Shown piece by piece: positions 6,989-39,749 of a stretch of 64,000 nt of DNA. A model generated the notes under the pieces. It made no database searches and was not told the DNA's origin. It saw only the letters and a program-made list of their open reading frames with translations. This stretch comes from Escherichia phage ukendt: sequence record NC_052661.1. One strand, given 5' to 3'. Within the stretch, counting starts at the first letter, position 1, and the number at the start of each line of letters is the position of its first letter. Position numbers and translations under genes: made by a program.

Positions 6989-7462
6989 TTAAAGTTTATA
7001 AATAGTCACATCGTGACCTGTTTTTACTAAAGTTTCTTCAATCATCACTTGGATGATAGCCCAATTACCTCCAGCATATCCAGCGCCAATCATAGGTAAG
7101 CCGATCTTACATTTTTGGTCACGGAGAAGCAAATCATTAGCCATAGCTATTAGTGCATCGTAAAGTGCATCATAGTCCAACTGACGACCTTTAGCATTGT
7201 ATCCGTAACGGTATTGTCCGTATAGATTATATACCAAAGGGTCTGATTGTTCGTCTGGCAACCCTAAACTAAAAGAACCTAACTTACTTTGATCACCAGC
7301 CATTGTGTCTAAATCTGCCGCATATGCATAAGGGAATGCTCGTTTAATTTGCGGAGCAATTCCTGCTCCCATATTACACATACAATTGCAACAATGAGCA
7401 ATAACAGTTACTTCTCCTGCTTTAGCGGCATCAATAAGATTACCTGTTTTCATTTTAAGCAT
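6989..7462 (-). CDS. macro-domain protein (ADP-ribose binding/hydrolase)
   Basis: 157 aa; VIAHCCNCMCNMGAGIA and IGLPMIGAGYAGG match the two macro-domain Gly-rich loops. Confidence 0.6.
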   Translation of the reverse strand: MLKMKTGNLIDAAKAGEVTVIAHCCNCMCNMGAGIAPQIKRAFPYAYAADLDTMAGDQSKLGSFSLGLPDEQSDPLVYNLYGQYRYGYNAKGRQLDYDALYDALIAMANDLLLRDQKCKIGLPMIGAGYAGGNWAIIQVMIEETLVKTGHDVTIYKL

Positions 7463-24954: not shown

Positions 24955-26163
24955 ATGAGTAAAGCTAAAAGTTGGGAAGAATATAAAGCAGAATGCGAGA
25001 TCATAGCTCTCTCTAAAGGATATAAAATTTTAGGCCATAAAGAATGGAAAGGGTGTGAGACTAAACTCCTGATAGAATGTCCTGTGCACGGTGTATGGGA
25101 TACTTGTAAAATATCTAACTTTAAAAGTGGGAAGTCTTGCCCTTCTTGTGGTGAATTAACAAAAAGGGAGAAGAGAACGAAGAGCAGAGAGGACCAAGAG
25201 AAAGAGTGTGAAGAAGAAGCGTTAAAAAGAGGTTGGCGCTTCTTGGGTATCTACGGAGAATGGCTGAAAGCTAAAAAGACACGAGTAATCTTACGTTGTG
25301 ATAGGGGTCACGAGTTTAACACATCTACCATAGACAACTTTAAGAATAATAAACAAGGTTGTCCAGTTTGTCGTTTAGAGGATATAGGTAAACACAATAA
25401 GCTTTCAGACGATCAGCACATACAAGATTTCATGAGTACGGGTGTGTTTCCCGAAGGCACTACCTTCACTAATACAGGGGAAAAAGCTGGGAGGAGCGAA
25501 ATACTTTGGAGTGTATTTTGCCCTATCTGTGCTATAGACGAGTTTTCCAAAGCTGGGGTAGGAACGGGATATTTTATCGGTAGAGGTAGTTCATTAAAAC
25601 AGGGTATGCGCCCTTGTCGTTGTTCTGCCAGTTACAAATATTCTGAAGAAGAGATGACATTTAGAGCAAAAAGTGACGTAGAACGTAGAGGGTACGTGTG
25701 GTTGGGGTGGATCGGGAAAGCTTCTATACTTGGGGATTTTGAATATGGTTGCAAGGATCATGGGAAACATGTGTGTAGTGCTAACAATTGGTTAAATAAG
25801 GGGTGTGGTTGCCCTGGTTGTGCAGGTATGAATCAACAACAAGCCTACATTAATTATATTTACGATGAGCAAGATATTATCTGTGCACTGAAGTTTGGTA
25901 TTGCTAATAATAGTAATCGCCGTATCAAAGAACAAAATAGTCGTAATGTGTTTACTATGAAACAGAGCCAAGTGTGGCACTTCCCTACTGTGAAGCAATG
26001 CAAAGATGCAGAAAAGCGTTGTAAGCGTGTCCTTCACACGGAAGCAGTGAGCAAATATTCTATGCCAGATGGCTACACAGAGACAGTGGAGTTATCTTGC
26101 ATGGCATCAATACAAAATATTTATAAACTTTATGGTGGAACATTACAGGAGGAAACATGTTAG
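24955..26163 (+). CDS. Cys-rich repeat protein with four zinc-ribbon-like modules
   Basis: 402 aa; four repeats of G(Y/W)xxLG...CxxGHxF...GCPxC pattern. Confidence 0.5.
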   Translation: MSKAKSWEEYKAECEIIALSKGYKILGHKEWKGCETKLLIECPVHGVWDTCKISNFKSGKSCPSCGELTKREKRTKSREDQEKECEEEALKRGWRFLGIYGEWLKAKKTRVILRCDRGHEFNTSTIDNFKNNKQGCPVCRLEDIGKHNKLSDDQHIQDFMSTGVFPEGTTFTNTGEKAGRSEILWSVFCPICAIDEFSKAGVGTGYFIGRGSSLKQGMRPCRCSASYKYSEEEMTFRAKSDVERRGYVWLGWIGKASILGDFEYGCKDHGKHVCSANNWLNKGCGCPGCAGMNQQQAYINYIYDEQDIICALKFGIANNSNRRIKEQNSRNVFTMKQSQVWHFPTVKQCKDAEKRCKRVLHTEAVSKYSMPDGYTETVELSCMASIQNIYKLYGGTLQEETC

Positions 26164-26522
26164 TTGACGTTCAAATTATGCGCAACGAAAGAATGGACTT
26201 CTTTGAAGCAGTAGAGAAACATCTGATCCGATGGGACTATGAATTTGTTCCTGCTGGATGTGGACCAGTAGAGCATTTAGCGGAAGACGACGATGTATAC
26301 ATGATCATTCGTCAAGTGTACCAGACAGACCAGTGTGAAGAAACTCCCGAACTGATTTTGTTTGAGTGTAAAGATCTTGCAAAATATTTTGACTATGGCG
26401 GAAAAGAGGGTCATAATCTCTCCAGATACAATAAACGTCTACTTATCTTAGACTACATGCGGAACAACAAACACAAACTCATCGACGCAGAAGCAGTTTA
26501 TGGCTACTGGTGGATGGACTAA
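26157..26522 (+). CDS. hypothetical protein
   Basis: 121 aa ORF. Confidence 0.5.
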   Translation: MLVDVQIMRNERMDFFEAVEKHLIRWDYEFVPAGCGPVEHLAEDDDVYMIIRQVYQTDQCEETPELILFECKDLAKYFDYGGKEGHNLSRYNKRLLILDYMRNNKHKLIDAEAVYGYWWMD

Positions 26523-26535
26523 CAAAGGAGAAACT

Positions 26536-26715
26536 ATGGCACGTTTAGCAGATCATGAAATCTTTAAACCTATTCTGAACCACTATGATGAACTTAAAGC
26601 AGTGTTGGATTGTTATAGAGAGGATGAAGAACGTTTGGAAGTCAATCTTAAGATAGTTCTGATGAAAGCTTTTCAAGACGGGCAAGCTAAAGTTTTAGAA
26701 GGCATGAAAAAATGA
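26536..26715 (+). CDS. hypothetical protein
   Basis: Start refined to ATG 26536 after AAAGGAG. Confidence 0.45.
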   Translation: MARLADHEIFKPILNHYDELKAVLDCYREDEERLEVNLKIVLMKAFQDGQAKVLEGMKK

Positions 26716-27254
26716 GAATAACTGATGAATATGTATTCTTCTTTTCACATAAAGATGTGTTTAGTAATTGGTATATTGCACCCTTTACAGAAACTGAACC
26801 AGGTTACAATGAGACTTTCTGTTGTGTTGAGCAATATATGATGTGGCGTAAGGCTTTGCTGTTCAAGGATCATGCGATTGCAGCAGCTATCCTTGATCAC
26901 TCAACTATACGTGACAACGAGAGGAAACAAGCATACTACAAACGTATGGGTCGAGCGGTATCTGGTTTTAATAATGATATGTGGGAAGAGAACCGTGAGC
27001 GTATTGTTATGCGAGGCTTATGCTTGAAATATGTACAGAATCCAGATTTGTATGCAGACTTACACCTTTACCAATACAAAACGTTTGTTGAAGCAAGCCC
27101 CTACGATAAGGTTTACGGAATTGGAATGGGGATGTATGAACCAGGGGTGCTAAACCCTGCTACCTGGAAAGGGCAGAATCTTTTAGGCAAATATCATAAT
27201 AAACTGATCGAAATACTCTTCCAAGACAAAATACCGCAAAGACGATATTTGTGA
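26712..27254 (+). CDS. NADAR (YbiA-like) domain protein
   Basis: 180 aa; FFFSHKDVFSNWY...CCVEQYMMWRKA matches the NADAR signature. Confidence 0.6.
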   Translation: MRITDEYVFFFSHKDVFSNWYIAPFTETEPGYNETFCCVEQYMMWRKALLFKDHAIAAAILDHSTIRDNERKQAYYKRMGRAVSGFNNDMWEENRERIVMRGLCLKYVQNPDLYADLHLYQYKTFVEASPYDKVYGIGMGMYEPGVLNPATWKGQNLLGKYHNKLIEILFQDKIPQRRYL

Positions 27255-27310
27255 TATTTTAACTTTTTTCATTTTTAGAACAAAGGTGTCACTTTGTAGC
27301 ACAGAAATAA

Positions 27311-27345
27311 GGCTCCTACAGCACCGTAGAGAGCCTGTTATTTTA
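27311..27345 (+). terminator. rho-independent terminator after the NADAR gene
   Basis: GGCTCCTAC...GTAGAGAGCC hairpin followed by TGTTATTTTA. Confidence 0.45.
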
Positions 27346-27496
27346 TCCTATACAAACCCTTGTCTTTTTCAGTTTGCATCACTAGGATTCGATCTGAGTG
27401 GGTTCCTGAAGGTCTGCCAATAAGATTAAAGGTTATCTCAAATTCCCACTACCTATTATCTCAAAAATCCCTCAAATTATTTAAACTTTTTAAGAA

Positions 27497-27536
27497 TTTA
27501 CAAAAGTGAAAGTTGAAAACCAAAATTTAAAGTTTA
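27497..27536. repeat. direct repeat, copy 1 (TTTAAAGTTTA-containing unit)
   Basis: TTTACAAAAGTGAAAGTTGAAAACCAAAATTTAAAGTTTAG, imperfectly repeated at 27636. Confidence 0.5.
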
Positions 27537-27635
27537 GGAAAATTATCTTAAAATGTTAGATACAAAACAAAACTCAAAAGTCAAGGAAAATTTTAAAAAT
27601 TTTGCGCGCCCACAGTATTTAAAGTTTTTTTGCTT

Positions 27636-27675
27636 TTACAAAAATGAAAGTACAAAAGCAAAATTTAAAGTTTAC
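27636..27675. repeat. direct repeat, copy 2
   Basis: TTTACAAAAATGAAAGTACAAAAGCAAAATTTAAAGTTTAC. Confidence 0.5.
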
Positions 27676-27722
27676 AAAAATTTTTATGCAGGTGAAAATG
27701 AGAAGAGTTCTCATATGGAAAT

Positions 27723-27745
27723 GCAAATGATAATGATTCGCATTT
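27723..27745. promoter_or_regulatory. Fur-box-like operator (site A)
   Basis: GCAAATGATAATGATTCGCATTT, about 14 of 19 to the Fur consensus, 60 bp upstream of site B. Confidence 0.4.
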
Positions 27746-27761
27746 AAGTTTATAAATGAGA

Positions 27762-27803
27762 TTGATTCTTATTTAATAAGGTAAATGATAATCATTCTCA
27801 TTT
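27762..27803 (+). promoter_or_regulatory. promoter with Fur-box-like operator across the -10 (site B)
   Basis: TTGATT, 18 nt, TGATAAT; palindrome AAATGATAATCATTCTCATTT matches the Fur consensus GATAATGATAATCATTATC at 16 of 19 positions. Confidence 0.5.
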
Positions 27804-28021
27804 AGAGAATGACGCGCAGGGGCGGTGTTTGTCTCGCGCTCCCGTGTCCCCTCGCCATGTAATAAGAATAACAGATCCAGCCAGGAAAGCAAGAGATTAT
27901 TTTATCTTTACATTTCTTTACAAATATATAGCGCCCAGCCTACCGGCGATCAACCTTCCAACCAGTGCCTCTGGTATGTTAGCCCCGCCTTTACGCCGTG
28001 GGGTGGCGCTTCCTCTTCTGT

Positions 28022-28056
28022 ATGTAAAACAGTATAAGCCCGATCCCTGGGCTTGT
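28022..28056 (-). promoter_or_regulatory. sigma70-like promoter reading leftward into non-coding DNA
   Basis: On the minus strand: TTGACA, 17 nt (AGCCCAGGGATCGGGCT, itself a hairpin), TATACT. Confidence 0.4.
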
Positions 28057-28061
28057 CAAGA

Positions 28062-28328
28062 TTATTTTTTGTTTTCTTGCCAGGATAGGACACCTAACCA
28101 AAAATACATATCGCCCCGCGCCCCTGGTGGTATCTTGCTTTCCCCGCCGCCACTGCAAGCCCATAGATAACCATTTGCGAACGTATCAAAATGATCTATC
28201 TCTTCCACCTTATGATCGCCCAGGTTGAGAACGGTTTCAACCTTTAAGCCCGTTGCGCTTGCTACCTGGTGCACCGTGCCGCCTTGCCAGCCCAATGAGT
28301 GCATAAGGTGTAATGTAGTATTTGTCAT
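28062..28328 (-). CDS. hypothetical protein (divergent gene at left edge of cassette array)
   Basis: 88 aa ORF in GC-richer DNA; GC hairpin about 30 nt upstream of its ATG. Confidence 0.4.
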   Translation of the reverse strand: MTNTTLHLMHSLGWQGGTVHQVASATGLKVETVLNLGDHKVEEIDHFDTFANGYLWACSGGGESKIPPGARGDMYFWLGVLSWQENKK

Positions 28329-28437
28329 GGTATCGCCCTTTCTTTGATGTGCGCCCTGGTTGGCGCGGTAGAAAGATGATAGCCCTTTCTTTTATATATA
28401 GCAAGCAAAAAGAAAATAAAAAAGATTGAAAAAGTGA

Positions 28438-28496
28438 TTGACGTTCGCCAGGTGGCGGCATAATATTTACCACGTAGGGCGGCAATGGTGCCGCTC
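28438..28496 (+). promoter_or_regulatory. cassette promoter + 5' hairpin module
   Basis: TTGACG, 17 nt, TAATAT, then ACGTAGGGCGGCAATGGTGCCGCTCA hairpin. Confidence 0.55.
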
Positions 28497-28515
28497 ATTA
28501 TTTGGAGTTAAAATC

Positions 28516-28713
28516 ATGGCAACATTGCACATTGTGGCGAAAGCTGGACAAATAAACGTGGTAGTAAACGGTTTTACTGAGTTCAGTCATCCCCAGGATG
28601 ATCATGAAACGGTTTTATCTTTCATTGATTCACTGTTAGAAATGGGAGTAATTACAGAAGACCAGCACGCTACAAAATGCAAACGCGTTAATCAGATTGC
28701 AGGAATAGAATAA
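28516..28713 (+). CDS. cassette small protein
   Basis: 65 aa; own promoter-hairpin module; GGAG RBS. Confidence 0.5.
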   Translation: MATLHIVAKAGQINVVVNGFTEFSHPQDDHETVLSFIDSLLEMGVITEDQHATKCKRVNQIAGIE

Positions 28714-28720
28714 AAAGTAT

Positions 28721-28783
28721 TGACAACAACCAACAACCTGATAAGATGTATCACATAGGGCGGCGGAATGGTCCAGCCGCTCA
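28721..28783 (+). promoter_or_regulatory. cassette promoter + 5' hairpin module
   Basis: TTGACA, 16 nt, TAAGAT, then ACATAGGGCGGCGGAATGGTCCAGCCGC hairpin. Confidence 0.55.
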
Positions 28784-28805
28784 CAACAGAAGAGAGATTA
28801 TAATC

Positions 28806-29078
28806 ATGGCATCATATAGCGCAACAATGATCGTAGCTGGCACCACTGGTAAACCTATGAGCGGTGGCGGATCTTTCGCAAATATCAACATTGACGGGCG
28901 TTTATCCCTGGACGCAGCGATCACCGTGGCGCGGGAAACATTTAAGAAAGAATGTAAATTCAATAAACAAGATTATCTCGGTTTTGCTATTGAAAAAACC
29001 GCGCGTTTTGTTGATTATAAAAGCCCAAAAATGGTTGATACTACACTAAAAGCGCAAGATGTAGCGTTTTTGCTTTAA
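28806..29078 (+). CDS. cassette small protein
   Basis: 90 aa; promoter-hairpin module; start refined to 28806. Confidence 0.5.
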   Translation: MASYSATMIVAGTTGKPMSGGGSFANINIDGRLSLDAAITVARETFKKECKFNKQDYLGFAIEKTARFVDYKSPKMVDTTLKAQDVAFLL

Positions 29079-29082
29079 GGTT

Positions 29083-29136
29083 TGACATTAACGAATAATT
29101 TGTTAATATGTTACATAAAGCGGGAATAGTTCCCGC
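29083..29136 (+). promoter_or_regulatory. cassette promoter + 5' hairpin module
   Basis: TTGACA, 16 nt, TAATAT, then GCGGGAATAGTTCCCGC hairpin. Confidence 0.55.
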
Positions 29137-29154
29137 TATTTGTAAGGTGGTAGA

Positions 29155-29412
29155 ATGTTTTACATCAAATTAAAAGGTCACGTGATCGCGTTCAAGGATA
29201 ACGCTTTTTACAGATTAGCAAAGTATGCGTTAATACATCCCCATTATGTTTATATAAGGGGGCGTGATGAAATAAATATTTTTGATCAAACAACATGCGA
29301 GAACATCGAGATCCGCAAGGTTGGCGTACGTGACTATCGTACATCTTTCTACCCTTGCAAGGATTCAGCAAGTCTTTTTAAAGTATGCCGATTGTTGAAA
29401 AAAGGTGGTTAA
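29155..29412 (+). CDS. cassette small protein
   Basis: 85 aa; promoter-hairpin module. Confidence 0.5.
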   Translation: MFYIKLKGHVIAFKDNAFYRLAKYALIHPHYVYIRGRDEINIFDQTTCENIEIRKVGVRDYRTSFYPCKDSASLFKVCRLLKKGG

Positions 29413-29413
29413 T

Positions 29414-29971
29414 ATGGGCCGCGAATATGTGATCCAGTCTTGGGTAAAACATGAAGCAGATGATCCGCGCATCATTCCTGATTATCTTGTCGATGAATCC
29501 ACGGGCTATAGCGGGGAGCAAATAGGTAACAGATTAGCACGTAGTAACGGCAACGTAAAAGCGCGTTATGTGCGCCCTGGTTGGCTGGCAAATGGTAACG
29601 CTGATTTATCCAGTGCGGAAGATGCGAGCGACGGCGCGAAAGATAATCCCTTGTACAAAGTTGATCCGGCTTTTCGTGTCCTGGATGAATACCCCAACAA
29701 GATAGCGGCGCTTGATGAAGCACTAGAAAGTAAGCGCATCACCTGGACCGCTTACAACATGGCAAAAAACGTACTTGATGGTAAACTGATTCAAGCGGAG
29801 AGAAAATTAGCCAAAATTGCAGCCATAGCCCAGGAGGAAGACGAGGAGACAACGGAAGAGGAAGAGTACGAAGAGATCCCGCCGTTGTTGTGTGTTGATG
29901 CTTTTCCTGATTATCAGCCGACAGAGGAAGAAAAAAGGATCGCCCTAGAAAACTTTGAAAATAGTCTTTGA
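29414..29971 (+). CDS. cassette protein with highly acidic C-terminus
   Basis: 186 aa; EEDEETTEEEEYEE tail; co-transcribed with preceding gene. Confidence 0.5.
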   Translation: MGREYVIQSWVKHEADDPRIIPDYLVDESTGYSGEQIGNRLARSNGNVKARYVRPGWLANGNADLSSAEDASDGAKDNPLYKVDPAFRVLDEYPNKIAALDEALESKRITWTAYNMAKNVLDGKLIQAERKLAKIAAIAQEEDEETTEEEEYEEIPPLLCVDAFPDYQPTEEEKRIALENFENSL

Positions 29972-30026
29972 CATATCGCCGCCACTAGCATAATATTTAC
30001 CACGTAGGGCGGCAATGGTGCCGCTC
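29968..30026 (+). promoter_or_regulatory. cassette promoter + 5' hairpin module
   Basis: TTGACA, 17 nt, TAATAT, then GCGGCAATGGTGCCGC hairpin. Confidence 0.55.
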
Positions 30027-30053
30027 ATAGTGAAATTATACAAGAGGCTTACA

Positions 30054-30149
30054 ATGATTAATAAAGAAAATAGCTTGACGGTTGGAACGATTAACGGTAT
30101 CATTCTAGCCGTTCCATTTTGGATTGTAGTAGCGGTTATTATTTTCTAA
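30054..30149 (+). CDS. cassette hydrophobic peptide
   Basis: 31 aa; own promoter-hairpin module. Confidence 0.35.
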   Translation: MINKENSLTVGTINGIILAVPFWIVVAVIIF

Positions 30150-30157
30150 AAATATTC

Positions 30158-30218
30158 TTGACAACGTTTTTTAATCTGATAAGATGTATCACATAGGGCG
30201 GCGGAATACTTCCCCGCC
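30158..30218 (+). promoter_or_regulatory. cassette promoter + 5' hairpin module
   Basis: TTGACA, 16 nt, TAAGAT, then GGGCGGCGGAATACTTCCCCGCC hairpin. Confidence 0.55.
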
Positions 30219-30239
30219 AAAACAAAAAAGGGTAACACA

Positions 30240-30602
30240 ATGAGCAAGCAAATCAATACTATCATGTTTAATCTGGTATCTTTCCGCGATGATATGAAAA
30301 ATTTACCACGTGAAACGGTTGATATTCATGTTTCAGCTTATCGCGCCCTTATTGACATGTTACCGCTAAAACGTGATCAACATGCCGCTAATATGATGCT
30401 TAATGCTATGCTTAAAAAGATGATTCAAACGGATCTTACTCTGGCATATGAGTATCAAGGGCGCTTATATGCAACTTACAACAAGGCGGTACCTGGTCTG
30501 GGAAGTACCGAAGAGTTGCACGGCTTAAACCTGGATCAAAACACTTGGGATAGTATGCGCCGCGTTATGGTATGGGCCGAAAGCGGTAAAATTTACGAAT
30601 AA
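30240..30602 (+). CDS. cassette small protein
   Basis: 120 aa; promoter-hairpin module. Confidence 0.5.
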   Translation: MSKQINTIMFNLVSFRDDMKNLPRETVDIHVSAYRALIDMLPLKRDQHAANMMLNAMLKKMIQTDLTLAYEYQGRLYATYNKAVPGLGSTEELHGLNLDQNTWDSMRRVMVWAESGKIYE

Positions 30603-30608
30603 AAACGG

Positions 30609-30668
30609 TTGACACTGTTTAAACTTCTGGTATAGTTTACCACATAGGGCGGGAAGTGGTTTCCCGCC
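30609..30668 (+). promoter_or_regulatory. cassette promoter + 5' hairpin module
   Basis: TTGACA, about 17 nt, TATAGT, then GGCGGGAAGTGGTTTCCCGCC hairpin. Confidence 0.55.
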
Positions 30669-30690
30669 AACAATTAAAAAGGTTATCATC

Positions 30691-31056
30691 ATGGCTATTA
30701 ATATTAATGTTTCCTCTTATGCTACCCTGGCTGACACGGCTAAAATTGAATTATCCAGCATTGAGGCGGTGCATATTAGCGCCCGTCGCTGGTTTCAACA
30801 GTCCTACGGTAACACATATTTTTCTTTAATGGTTGACGTTGAGATCGGCGGTAAACTGATCGAGGTGGTTAACGTTCCGTTTCAATATGGTTATGGTGAT
30901 CATTTTGATACCGTCGCCCTGGAAGAATTTAGCAAGGTCGTTAATATGGAAGGTAAAGAGTTTTCACGCGGCGCGTATCTTTCCCGTTTTTGCCGTGACA
31001 ATGGGATCACTGTATACAGTCATGCAAGCGATGTTAAACGTAAAAAAGATCTATAA
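30691..31056 (+). CDS. cassette small protein
   Basis: 121 aa; promoter-hairpin module. Confidence 0.5.
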   Translation: MAININVSSYATLADTAKIELSSIEAVHISARRWFQQSYGNTYFSLMVDVEIGGKLIEVVNVPFQYGYGDHFDTVALEEFSKVVNMEGKEFSRGAYLSRFCRDNGITVYSHASDVKRKKDL

Positions 31057-37855: not shown

Positions 37856-37882
37856 AGGGCGCACAAAGCGCCCTTTCTTTTT
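37856..37882 (+). terminator. rho-independent terminator at the right end of the cassette array
   Basis: AGGGCGC-ACAAA-GCGCCCT followed by TTCTTTTT; near-identical to the terminator at 33231. Confidence 0.6.
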
Positions 37883-38019
37883 GCCCGAACAATGTTGATA
37901 GCTTTCGCCTATGAAAAACCGACACAGAACAAAACTGAATAAATCACGGTATCAAGCTAATCGACCATTAAACGAATAACCATACATCCCAGGGCAACAG
38001 GCTGTTAGAGAGCTATTTA

Positions 38020-38360
38020 GAGCGGTTAAAATCGATCAACAACCAACAACAAACCATCAAAAACACCCTTTTACCTCCTTTCTAGTGCAATGATAACCAT
38101 TATCATCTACCCATGATTATCTATGCAATATAAGCGCATAATTATAATGTTGATAATAGTTCGCAACAACTAACCAACAAACAACATAAAACAATAAGCA
38201 AACTAATCATAATCAAAGGAATAATAGCAAGATGATTGATAACGACAAACAATCAAACCATGATGAATACTAAGCAAAACAACGATAACACGACAAAACA
38301 ACCAACTAACGAACAATAACAAACGAAACCATTAAAATAACAACTATTAGCAAAATAGTG
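38020..38360. repeat. A+C-rich low-complexity tract with AAC/CAA repeats
   Basis: Long runs such as CAACAACCAACAACAAACCATCAAAAACACCC with almost no G on the plus strand and no ORF. Confidence 0.55.
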
Positions 38361-38489
38361 CCTAAATGAAATCATTACAAAACGAATCATTCACAGGATC
38401 ATCATTAGCACGCTATGCCGGACACATAGCGAGCTAATAATAAGCCAACTACACCCCAACAATCATAACCATCGGTGACGGTTATTTCT

Positions 38490-38520
38490 TGTTACTGCGT
38501 AGCTTGCAATAATTGCAAGC
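38490..38520. repeat. perfect palindrome CTTGCAATAATTGCAAG
   Basis: 17-bp inverted repeat within the non-coding region. Confidence 0.45.
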
Positions 38521-38843
38521 GTAATGACGCTTACACTTATTGCGCTGGCTTATTATTAGCATTATATGTAATTACCAAGATCATAACATTAGCGCAATAA
38601 CAATAATCATTGTGGTAATTACAAGATGAAATCATTAGCAAGATGAATAATTGCACGTAGCAACATGAGCGAATAGCGACAGGTTGCATAGTGTGCACAT
38701 AGTGTATAAACATACAAGAAAATAAAGGCTAATCTTTTGGGGGCGAATACTATCGCGTAGCGATATGTTGAGCACCTTCTCTTAAACGTAAATAAAATCA
38801 GAAAATTCTTGATTTATTTTAGTTTTTATGTTAATAAACGTTT

Positions 38844-38864
38844 AAATAATAATCATTCTCATAT
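38844..38864. promoter_or_regulatory. Fur-box-like operator (site C)
   Basis: AAATAATAATCATTCTCATAT shares the core AATCATTCTCAT with sites B and D. Confidence 0.4.
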
Positions 38865-39002
38865 AAATAATAGTCTGCTTGTCATGAGCGGGATTAGTTG
38901 ACAATGTTCCGTCATATGATGAAGTTGCCAAACCATTGATAAATAAGTGTTTGTGTGATTTATAATCAAGTGGCCCACCTTGTCGCTATGTTGGCATGAG
39001 CC

Positions 39003-39044
39003 TTGCATAAGTCATTGAATACGAATGATAATTATTCTCATTCG
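39003..39044 (+). promoter_or_regulatory. promoter with Fur-box-like operator across the -10 (site D)
   Basis: TTGCAT, 17 nt, TGATAAT; palindrome CGAATGATAATTATTCTCATTCG. Confidence 0.5.
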
Positions 39045-39374
39045 CATGATATTTGGGAATTGTCGCTGCGTGGACCTGACGGCCCGAAAATTCGCGTTAA
39101 GCACTTCTTACGTATGCGCCATGATTTTTGCCATATGATATTGATTCTATTAGATATTCTTGCCATGAAACAAGGTGTGTCGAAATAATCTCTCCCCGTA
39201 GATATTTTGGGTTACTTTTTATACAAGAGTGGGGTGTCAAAAATAATCGGTATATATGGGATAATTGATAGGAATCCCCTATGGTAATTCGATTGTAATT
39301 CCTTAAGATTGATCGTATGATGTTGGTGATTGATGATTGCCATGAAAGATGGCTAACGATGAGAGGAGATTGTC

Positions 39375-39749
39375 ATGCAAGAGAGTAAAAATATTCCGTT
39401 GAGTAGTGCAACATTGCTTCGCTTCTATAAAGCATGGATTGCCAACTATCCTGCAATGAATCGCACAACGAGTGGCTTATGTGGTTGTCTGGTAGATTAT
39501 GTAGATGATTTTGTTGGTGAGACAACTAGAGAAGAAGATAGAAGATGGCGTGATCATTTGTTGGACCGTTTGAAATATGAAATGAGGAAACAATTTACAT
39601 GTGCAGGGCTGGACTACAATCTTCCGTTCAATGCAGATTGCATGGATTACCTTTCAGAGTGTATAAACTTGGCGTGTCATACCAACACGTTACGTCTTCA
39701 ATGGGTGAAAGATCGGATTGAAGATGCAAATAATGCTTGCATTGAATAA
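39375..39749 (+). CDS. family A paralog (WVKDR motif)
   Basis: 124 aa; GLCxxL...LPF...RLQWVKDRI shared with four other ORFs. Confidence 0.55.
   Translation: MQESKNIPLSSATLLRFYKAWIANYPAMNRTTSGLCGCLVDYVDDFVGETTREEDRRWRDHLLDRLKYEMRKQFTCAGLDYNLPFNADCMDYLSECINLACHTNTLRLQWVKDRIEDANNACIE

Follow-up and report, generated by a model that had tools for sequence, protein, structure and literature searches.

A conserved direct-repeat array in the non-coding control region of phAPEC8-like phages, probably a protein-binding or DNA-unwinding site

What is the function of the long direct repeats that lie in an AT-rich intergenic gap of Escherichia phage ukendt (NC_052661.1)? The rV5-like, phi92-like and phAPEC8-like phages, which are widely used in therapy cocktails, still lack a defined replication origin, entry signal or early control region, and the repeat array, previously undescribed, provides a single, conserved and experimentally tractable candidate site. 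An origin at this place would aid phage engineering and rebooting, while a T5-like boundary element would extend to other phages a mechanism so far regarded as specific to T5. We analysed the repeats within a stretch of 64,000 nucleotides (referred to here as the window) and compared them with their counterparts in related phages. The array is probably a protein-binding or DNA-unwinding site, for example a replication origin.

The window is part of a Phapecoctavirus (phAPEC8-like) genome of the Stephanstirmvirinae: the 601 bases around the repeats share 99.8% identity with Escherichia phage vB_EcoM_UP17 and 98% with phAPEC8, both members of this genus and subfamily. The repeats are located in a gap of about 1.26 kb (27255-28515) which is unannotated in most records. 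The plus-strand block to its left is made up of largely uncharacterised genes (AAA+ ATPase, endonuclease, NADAR-domain protein), and to its right is a run of small plus-strand early genes, each with a sigma-70 promoter and a 5′ hairpin ahead of it. As judged from comparison with relatives, the gap is a conserved non-coding control region between the plus-strand block and the small early genes. Its left border is defined by two features:

26712-27254, plus strand: NADAR-domain gene, the last gene of the plus-strand block
27310-27336, plus strand: intrinsic terminator, which bounds the non-coding region on the left and has a terminator annotation in phAPEC8

Two mechanically called plus-strand ORFs overlap the array (27360-27509 and 27553-27747). 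Alignment with phiWec179 and inny introduces gaps of 7, 11 and 18 nt across them and, because such indels break the frames, no ORF at the array survives comparison with relatives; 27553-27747 was rejected as coding on this ground. The initial annotation had described the region as ORF-free and had placed it between the terminator of the plus-strand block and Fur-like sites (27696-27804). The placement is correct and the absence of ORFs essentially so, most records annotating nothing here. A scan of the window for tRNA and tmRNA genes gave none.

The two sides of the gap carry further small repeated elements. At the stop codon of the upstream gene (CGATATTTGTGATATTT, 27243-27259) there are repeated copies of a short GATATTT motif, which is multiplied four to five times at the equivalent place in the Vequintavirinae loci L011, L012, L015, L017 and L018 (about -800 to -700 of the anchor). 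In the leaders of the early genes, a sigma-70 promoter close to consensus precedes a GC-rich 5′ hairpin (GGGCGGCAATGGTGCCGCTC-like). These leaders are found at 28438-28500, 28720-28780 and similar sites downstream, and are sufficiently alike to give multiple BLAST places per genome.

The repeat pair itself is composed of two units of 72 nt (27473-27544 and 27611-27682) which are identical at 59 of 72 positions (82%) and whose starts are 138 bp apart. In 300 dinucleotide-preserving shuffles, whether of the complete 1.26-kb gap or just of its AT-rich part, the best-scoring 72-mer pair never exceeded 43 of 72 (mean 37) and none of the 300 reached 59. The two repeats of about 40 bp, about 140 bp apart, that had been noticed initially are real, but their true length is 72 nt and they start 24 nt further upstream than had been proposed. 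The sequence TTTAAASTTT has five matches on the two strands of the window, compared to 1.78 expected for the whole of it, and four of the five lie inside the two units (27480, 27526, 27618 and 27664), the 10-nt cores being spaced by 46, 92 and 46 bp. Core copies which had been assigned to the interval between the repeats belong to the repeats themselves, TTTAAACTTT being the head of unit 1 and TTTAAAGTTTTTTT that of unit 2.

The composition of the array is also distinctive. The initial description as AT-rich is fully justified: 27488-27687, with 78.5% A+T, is the richest 200 bp of the window, and the array region is also its richest 300-bp stretch. Nearest-neighbour stacking energies place the array among the least stable stretches of the window (the least stable 200-bp segments are 27612-27811 and 27403-27602), and it forms the most AT-rich and most easily melted 220 bp or so of the 1.26-kb control region. 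AA/TT helical periodicity (10-11.5 bp) is absent at the array, where it falls below the window median, and there is no helical phasing of A-tracts; intrinsic curvature was rejected accordingly. Host mimicry was also rejected, the array having no E. coli match at E ≤ 0.1.

Alignment of the units reveals a common plan. Each begins with a head, box A (TATTTAAA-S-TTTTT), followed about 22 nt further on by box B (AAAA-R-TGAAAG) and then by a distal core (AAATTTAAAGTTTA) which copies box A in part. In the seven units aligned from three phages, box A does not vary. As a genome-wide promoter motif it was rejected, TATTTAAAGTTTTT occurring with up to two mismatches only at 27255, 27478 and 27616. The features of the array are as follows:

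27433..27465, plus strand: exact TTATCTCAAA motif, present twice at a distance of 23 bp, immediately upstream of unit 1
27473..27544, plus strand: direct-repeat unit 1, 72 nt (shuffle test and unit alignment)
27478-27491, plus strand: box A of unit 1, TATTTAAACTTTTT (unit alignment)
about 27500-27511, plus strand: box B of unit 1, AAAAGTGAAAGT (unit alignment)
27526-27535, plus strand: distal core of unit 1, TTTAAAGTTT (unit alignment)
27545..27610, plus strand: putative decayed middle unit, which keeps the TTATCTTAAA motif, a 34-nt remnant (27561-27594) and a GCGCGC island
27611..27682, plus strand: direct-repeat unit 2, 72 nt, 82% identical to phiWec179
27616-27629, plus strand: box A of unit 2, TATTTAAAGTTTTT (unit alignment)
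27628-27637 and 27654-27663, plus strand: 10-bp inverted repeat internal to unit 2, TTTTGCTTTT/AAAAGCAAAA (repeat search)
within 27611-27682, plus strand: box B of unit 2, AAAAATGAAAGT (unit alignment)
27664-27673, plus strand: distal core of unit 2, TTTAAAGTTT (unit alignment)

The TTATCTCAAA motif has a third copy, with one mismatch, at 27543-27552. It is kept in phiWec179 and is present in three copies in the Klebsiella-type locus L011; over the whole window it shows no enrichment.

The 34-nt remnant between the two units is 74% identical to the 3′ parts of both and represents a degenerate third copy. In inny, units 1, 2 and 3 align respectively to unit 1, the inter-unit stretch and unit 2 of the window. 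Because the intact second unit of inny aligns to the inter-unit stretch, we read the Phapecoctavirus array as three ancestral units with a period of about 69 bp, of which the outer two are intact and the middle one has decayed. The decay of the middle unit would explain the 138-bp spacing, which is twice 69 bp, periods elsewhere being 65-75 bp.

Could such units be tandem RNA-polymerase sites, each of about 70 bp and serving as a weak or modified-specificity promoter, or as an UP-element-like site, which recruits or stores the host enzyme? The unit period would match the footprint of RNA polymerase and promoter-like matches are locally enriched (11 versus 4.4 ± 2.4), with TTTACA-18-CAAAAT in both units and TTTACA-17-GAAAAT at 27671; some Vequintavirinae units may be readable as TCGACT-17-TATTTT. 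All these matches, however, are 9/12 and lie in AT-rich DNA, no conserved -35/-10 pair with a spacing of 16-18 nt is found in the units, the hexamers being conserved neither in inny nor across units, and the invariant box A fits neither hexamer. We regard polymerase sites of this kind as very unlikely.

Most of the Phapecoctavirus records listed have the array at a single place in the genome, and a few at two, with 96-100% identity. In the divergent phiWec179, units 1 and 2 retain 81-82% identity, whereas identity is 46% for spacer A, 61% for the middle stretch and 15% for the linker. Both units of the window carry TTTAAAG where both phiWec179 units carry TTCTAAAG, a concerted change. Features specific to one unit are also common to the two genomes (box A of unit 1 has a C, and unit 2 has TTTTTGCTTTT), and the duplication is therefore old and has been kept.

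In phi92-like phages the array is present as three units. Three-unit arrays at the same position and with clade-specific sequence also occur in four IMG/VR clades, and the Vequintavirinae have an equivalent three-unit array in the same place but with a different sequence (e.g. GGGTCTCGATCG...TTTTCATTTTC...ATCGTATTCTC). The periods are 67 and 75 bp in inny, 75 and 67 bp in PVP-SE1 and 65 and 74 bp in the rV5-like PDX. Indeed, a single layout is observed across the Stephanstirmvirinae and Vequintavirinae: a three-unit array with a 65-75-bp period is followed by Fur-box-like palindromes, and these by a GC hairpin and leftward sigma-70 promoters. The array always adjoins the palindromes and is downstream of the conserved promoters. 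In the inny record (MN850601), an automatic 'repeat_region' at 126161-126286 corresponds to the orthologous three-unit array; it consists of coordinates without description, and no paper discussing it was found in the literature searched.

The initial annotation had staked its proposal on the conservation of the repeats in related phages, and they are indeed kept in Phapecoctavirus, in the phiWec179 group and in phi92-like phages. A fixed position, number and period together with a diverged sequence is the pattern expected of a cis-element read by a co-evolving factor, and the comparison well supports the view that the array acts in cis and is under selection. The protein-binding array suggested initially is something we infer from the clade-specific sequence at a conserved position. 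A functionless neutral duplication is contradicted both by the contrast in identity between units and spacers and by the retention of the three-unit array across two subfamilies.

To the right of unit 2 and on the far side of the early genes, the following features were identified:

27696..27804, no strand assigned: four Fur-box-like 21-bp palindromes with a 29-bp spacing, adjoining unit 2
27850-27805, minus strand: GC-rich hairpin leader of promoter P2, running into the palindromes (P2 and leader, 27805..27893)
27892-27887 and 27870-27865, minus strand: putative promoter P2, -35 TTGCTT and -10 TATTCT with a 16-nt spacer, a reading of the alignment
28024 to 27926, minus strand: RNA-like element of about 100 nt, almost invariant, following promoter P1 (P1 and element, 27926..28059)
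28059 to 28031, minus strand: putative promoter P1, TTGACA-17-TATACT, 11/12 consensus matches
38089-38107, 38845-38863 and 39024-39042: further Fur-box-like palindromes in a second non-coding region

The best palindrome matches the E. coli Fur consensus (GATAATGATAATCATTATC) at 16 of 19 positions, a sequence match which designates a putative site. There are seven such palindromes in the window, the four at 27696-27804 and three in the second non-coding region across the early block, and they are restricted to these two regions flanking the early genes. The same palindromes occur in rV5-like, PVP-SE1-like, Klebsiella and Cronobacter phages, in a T5-like terminal repeat (L023, 1858-2030) and within the 342-bp terminal repeat of phage BME3. 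The literature searched held nothing relevant linking Fur to these phages or describing Fur sites in lytic phages. The fixed tie of the palindromes to the array and their recurrence in the T5 terminal-repeat region may point to an unrecognised use of the host iron regulator by several virulent enterobacterial phage families.

Both P1 and P2 point at the palindromes and the repeats. The segment carrying them is 86-100% identical between genera whose flanks are 40-60% identical. P2 is weak in the phage studied here (TTGCTT-16-TATTCT) and was not listed by the promoter scan of the window; its hexamers are kept across ten divergent loci with a spacer that varies (TTGCAA-17-TATATT in the Vequintavirinae), and a tandem TGTAAAGA-N3-TGTAAAGA motif ahead of it is kept in all ten loci compared. 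The RNA-like element downstream of P1 is almost invariant across the Stephanstirmvirinae and Vequintavirinae, can be folded plausibly, with one covarying pair, and is possibly a phage small RNA not described before; an Rfam scan of 25000-31000 at E ≤ 1 gave no match. In the rV5-like PDX (L008), the promoter-hairpin-palindrome module is present as two tandem copies. In L021 (IMGVR_UViG_2974574029_000001), about 800 nt upstream of the anchor match at 7083, the RNA-like element is split by an insertion of about 700 nt that looks coding on the minus strand, which suggests a mobile element (homing endonuclease or intron) targeting the RNA-like element.

One reading of this arrangement is an operator or landing pad, in which a clade-specific protein of the early or middle class, bound by the units, would control the leftward P1/P2 transcripts or read-through from the plus-strand block, so that the array would act as a switch and not as an origin. 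The clade-specific sequence at a conserved position, the concerted change within a genome and the location of the array directly downstream of conserved promoters, between convergent transcription units, are all consistent with this, and the many uncharacterised early proteins encoded nearby could include the binder. However, the window ORF list holds no minus-strand ORF downstream of P1/P2 that could be controlled, units of 65-75 bp are long for operators, and the one adjacent conserved protein has no HTH-like structural match. A switch of this type appears to us possible but unlikely.

Tentatively, we prefer to read the array as a transcription-activated origin or unwinding site. Transcription-activated origins, such as the primary origin of T7 and oriF/oriG of T4, include one or more promoters directed into an AT-rich, meltable non-coding stretch and need no adjacent dedicated initiator gene. 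Like these, the locus has promoters aimed at the AT-rich, meltable stretch of a non-coding gap, the promoters being consensus matches (P1 at 11/12, P2 kept in ten loci). In contrast to these origins, which have neither, it also includes long direct-repeat units and host-factor palindromes, and the likeness is one of analogy. In the mechanism we propose, the array would be a cis-acting, sequence-specific protein-binding and unwinding module in which box A and box B of each unit are read by a clade-specific factor while the adjoining Fur-box-like palindromes are bound by a host factor. P1 and P2 would transcribe leftward into the palindromes and repeats, the P2 leader being G-rich and having a stable GC hairpin. 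The most likely role of such a module would be that of an origin of the T7-primary or T4 oriF/oriG type equipped with iteron-like specificity elements. We infer transcription through the array, unwinding and origin function, as well as protein binding, from sequence and its comparison.

A considerable body of evidence weighs against an origin. Iteron origins (lambda ori and oriV of F, P1 and R6K) provide a second point of comparison. The array shares with them same-strand repeats beside AT-rich DNA (27488-27687 here), a lineage-specific sequence and concerted change. Iterons, however, are tandem, helically phased repeats of about 17-22 bp present in at least four copies, which lie within or next to the initiator gene and are accompanied by DnaA or IHF sites, whereas the array has units of 65-75 bp, three in number with one decayed, and no rep gene beside it. 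Consensus searches of 27255-28515 found no DnaA boxes (TTWTNCACA) and no IHF site (WATCAANNNNTTR). No initiator gene was recognised among the neighbours (NADAR-domain protein, 88-aa protein and AAA+ ATPase): the 88-aa protein gives a confident structure model but no recognisable DNA-binding or HTH-like fold match, and the AAA+ ATPase, 2.3 kb upstream, was rejected as an initiator, having generic AAA matches only. The term iteron-like, as used in the initial annotation, is therefore not supported in its strict sense, with two intact units of 72 nt in place of repeats of about 20 bp.

The cumulative GC-skew minimum is located at the strand switch at about 21.7 kb, away from the repeats, and is uninformative on the origin because skew follows the direction of transcription. 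For rV5, transcription-linked skew changes only were described and no origin was defined (PMC3606486). A search of the literature for a described origin or a transcriptome of these phages returned nothing relevant.

Another comparison is with Repeat Region 3 of T5, a 1.2-kb untranslated region proposed by Davison as a candidate injection-stop signal and which is not where the T5 origins were mapped (10.1101/866236). Like it, the gap is a large untranslated region of about 1.2 kb that borders a block of small early genes on the inner side and contains direct repeats and then Fur-box-like palindromes. The inner end of the T5-like LTR has the same order, with direct repeats (TGTCGGATTYGCACA, at least six copies), Fur-like palindromes, and a palindrome followed by a GC hairpin, and the palindrome cluster of the window is 81-87% identical to it over 55-60 nt. 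The position of the genome ends is of importance here. The record of BME3, a phi92-like phage, has an identical 342 bp at both ends, which its authors report as a DTR from PhageTerm (PMC12210895). This end maps to about 38.8-39.1 kb of the window, which would place the repeats about 11 kb (7-8% of the genome) from the putative end and would fit the 8% or so from the first-entering end seen in T5, the termini being uncertain.

The region might be a boundary element of the Repeat Region 3 type. The gap would then form a nucleoprotein checkpoint where a terminal block of early genes, about 11 kb long, has its inner border. The repeats would bind a phage or host protein and, with the Fur-like palindromes, would hold up DNA entry or keep early transcription apart from that of later genes. 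The restriction of the palindromes to the two non-coding regions flanking the early block is in keeping with this, as is the presence of only small early genes between the repeats and the putative BME3-derived end. On the other hand, paired DnaA boxes are absent from 27255-28515, there is no protein of A1 size and no A1- or A2-like gene, the ten largest early ORFs being without a named function, and no long terminal repeat is known for these phages, that reported for BME3 being 342 bp and not 10 kb. The sources on termini also conflict, since the ends of the phiWec179 record map away from the region though its authors also report terminal repeats. Moreover, T5 and BF23 are the only phages for which two-step injection has been reported, and the likeness to T5 could reflect just shared host-factor sites. 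We consider a boundary element, in either its checkpoint or its insulating form, doubtful, though it is the chief rival of the origin reading.

The T5 parallel is looser than the layout common to the Stephanstirmvirinae and Vequintavirinae, and for the array it is suggestive but weak. In its strongest form, the whole 1.26-kb region would be the counterpart of the T5 injection stop, with the array as its specificity element and with a checkpoint that uses Fur and borders a first-entering early block of about 11 kb; this seems to us quite improbable. If true, the rV5-like and phi92-like myoviruses would share a T5-like staged delivery or an iron-sensing early programme, by means of a module that has passed from one phage family to another, unrelated one.

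Direct repeats in arrays are a frequent form of terminase recognition site, and the array could in principle be bound by the terminase small subunit as a packaging recognition site. T5-like direct repeats do adjoin a terminal-repeat boundary, but the only terminus reported for the subfamily maps about 11 kb away. A packaging site, or the functionless duplication considered above, is highly unlikely to account for the array.

Two other sources bear on the genome ends. The oversized WPEC records were set aside as uninformative about a long terminal repeat, because multiple places per record are common and arise from the repeated early-promoter leaders. The start of the ETEC-TG record (27426 of the window) was rejected as a terminus and is an assembly break, the record being declared circular with an end overlap of about 110 nt. 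The BME3 terminal repeat, mapping as it does to about 38.8-39.1 kb, suggests that the physical ends may lie in the second large non-coding region of the window (37880-39375). This region also contains a 430-nt A+C-rich, strand-asymmetric tract at 38040-38470 (A 201, C 101, G 42, T 87).
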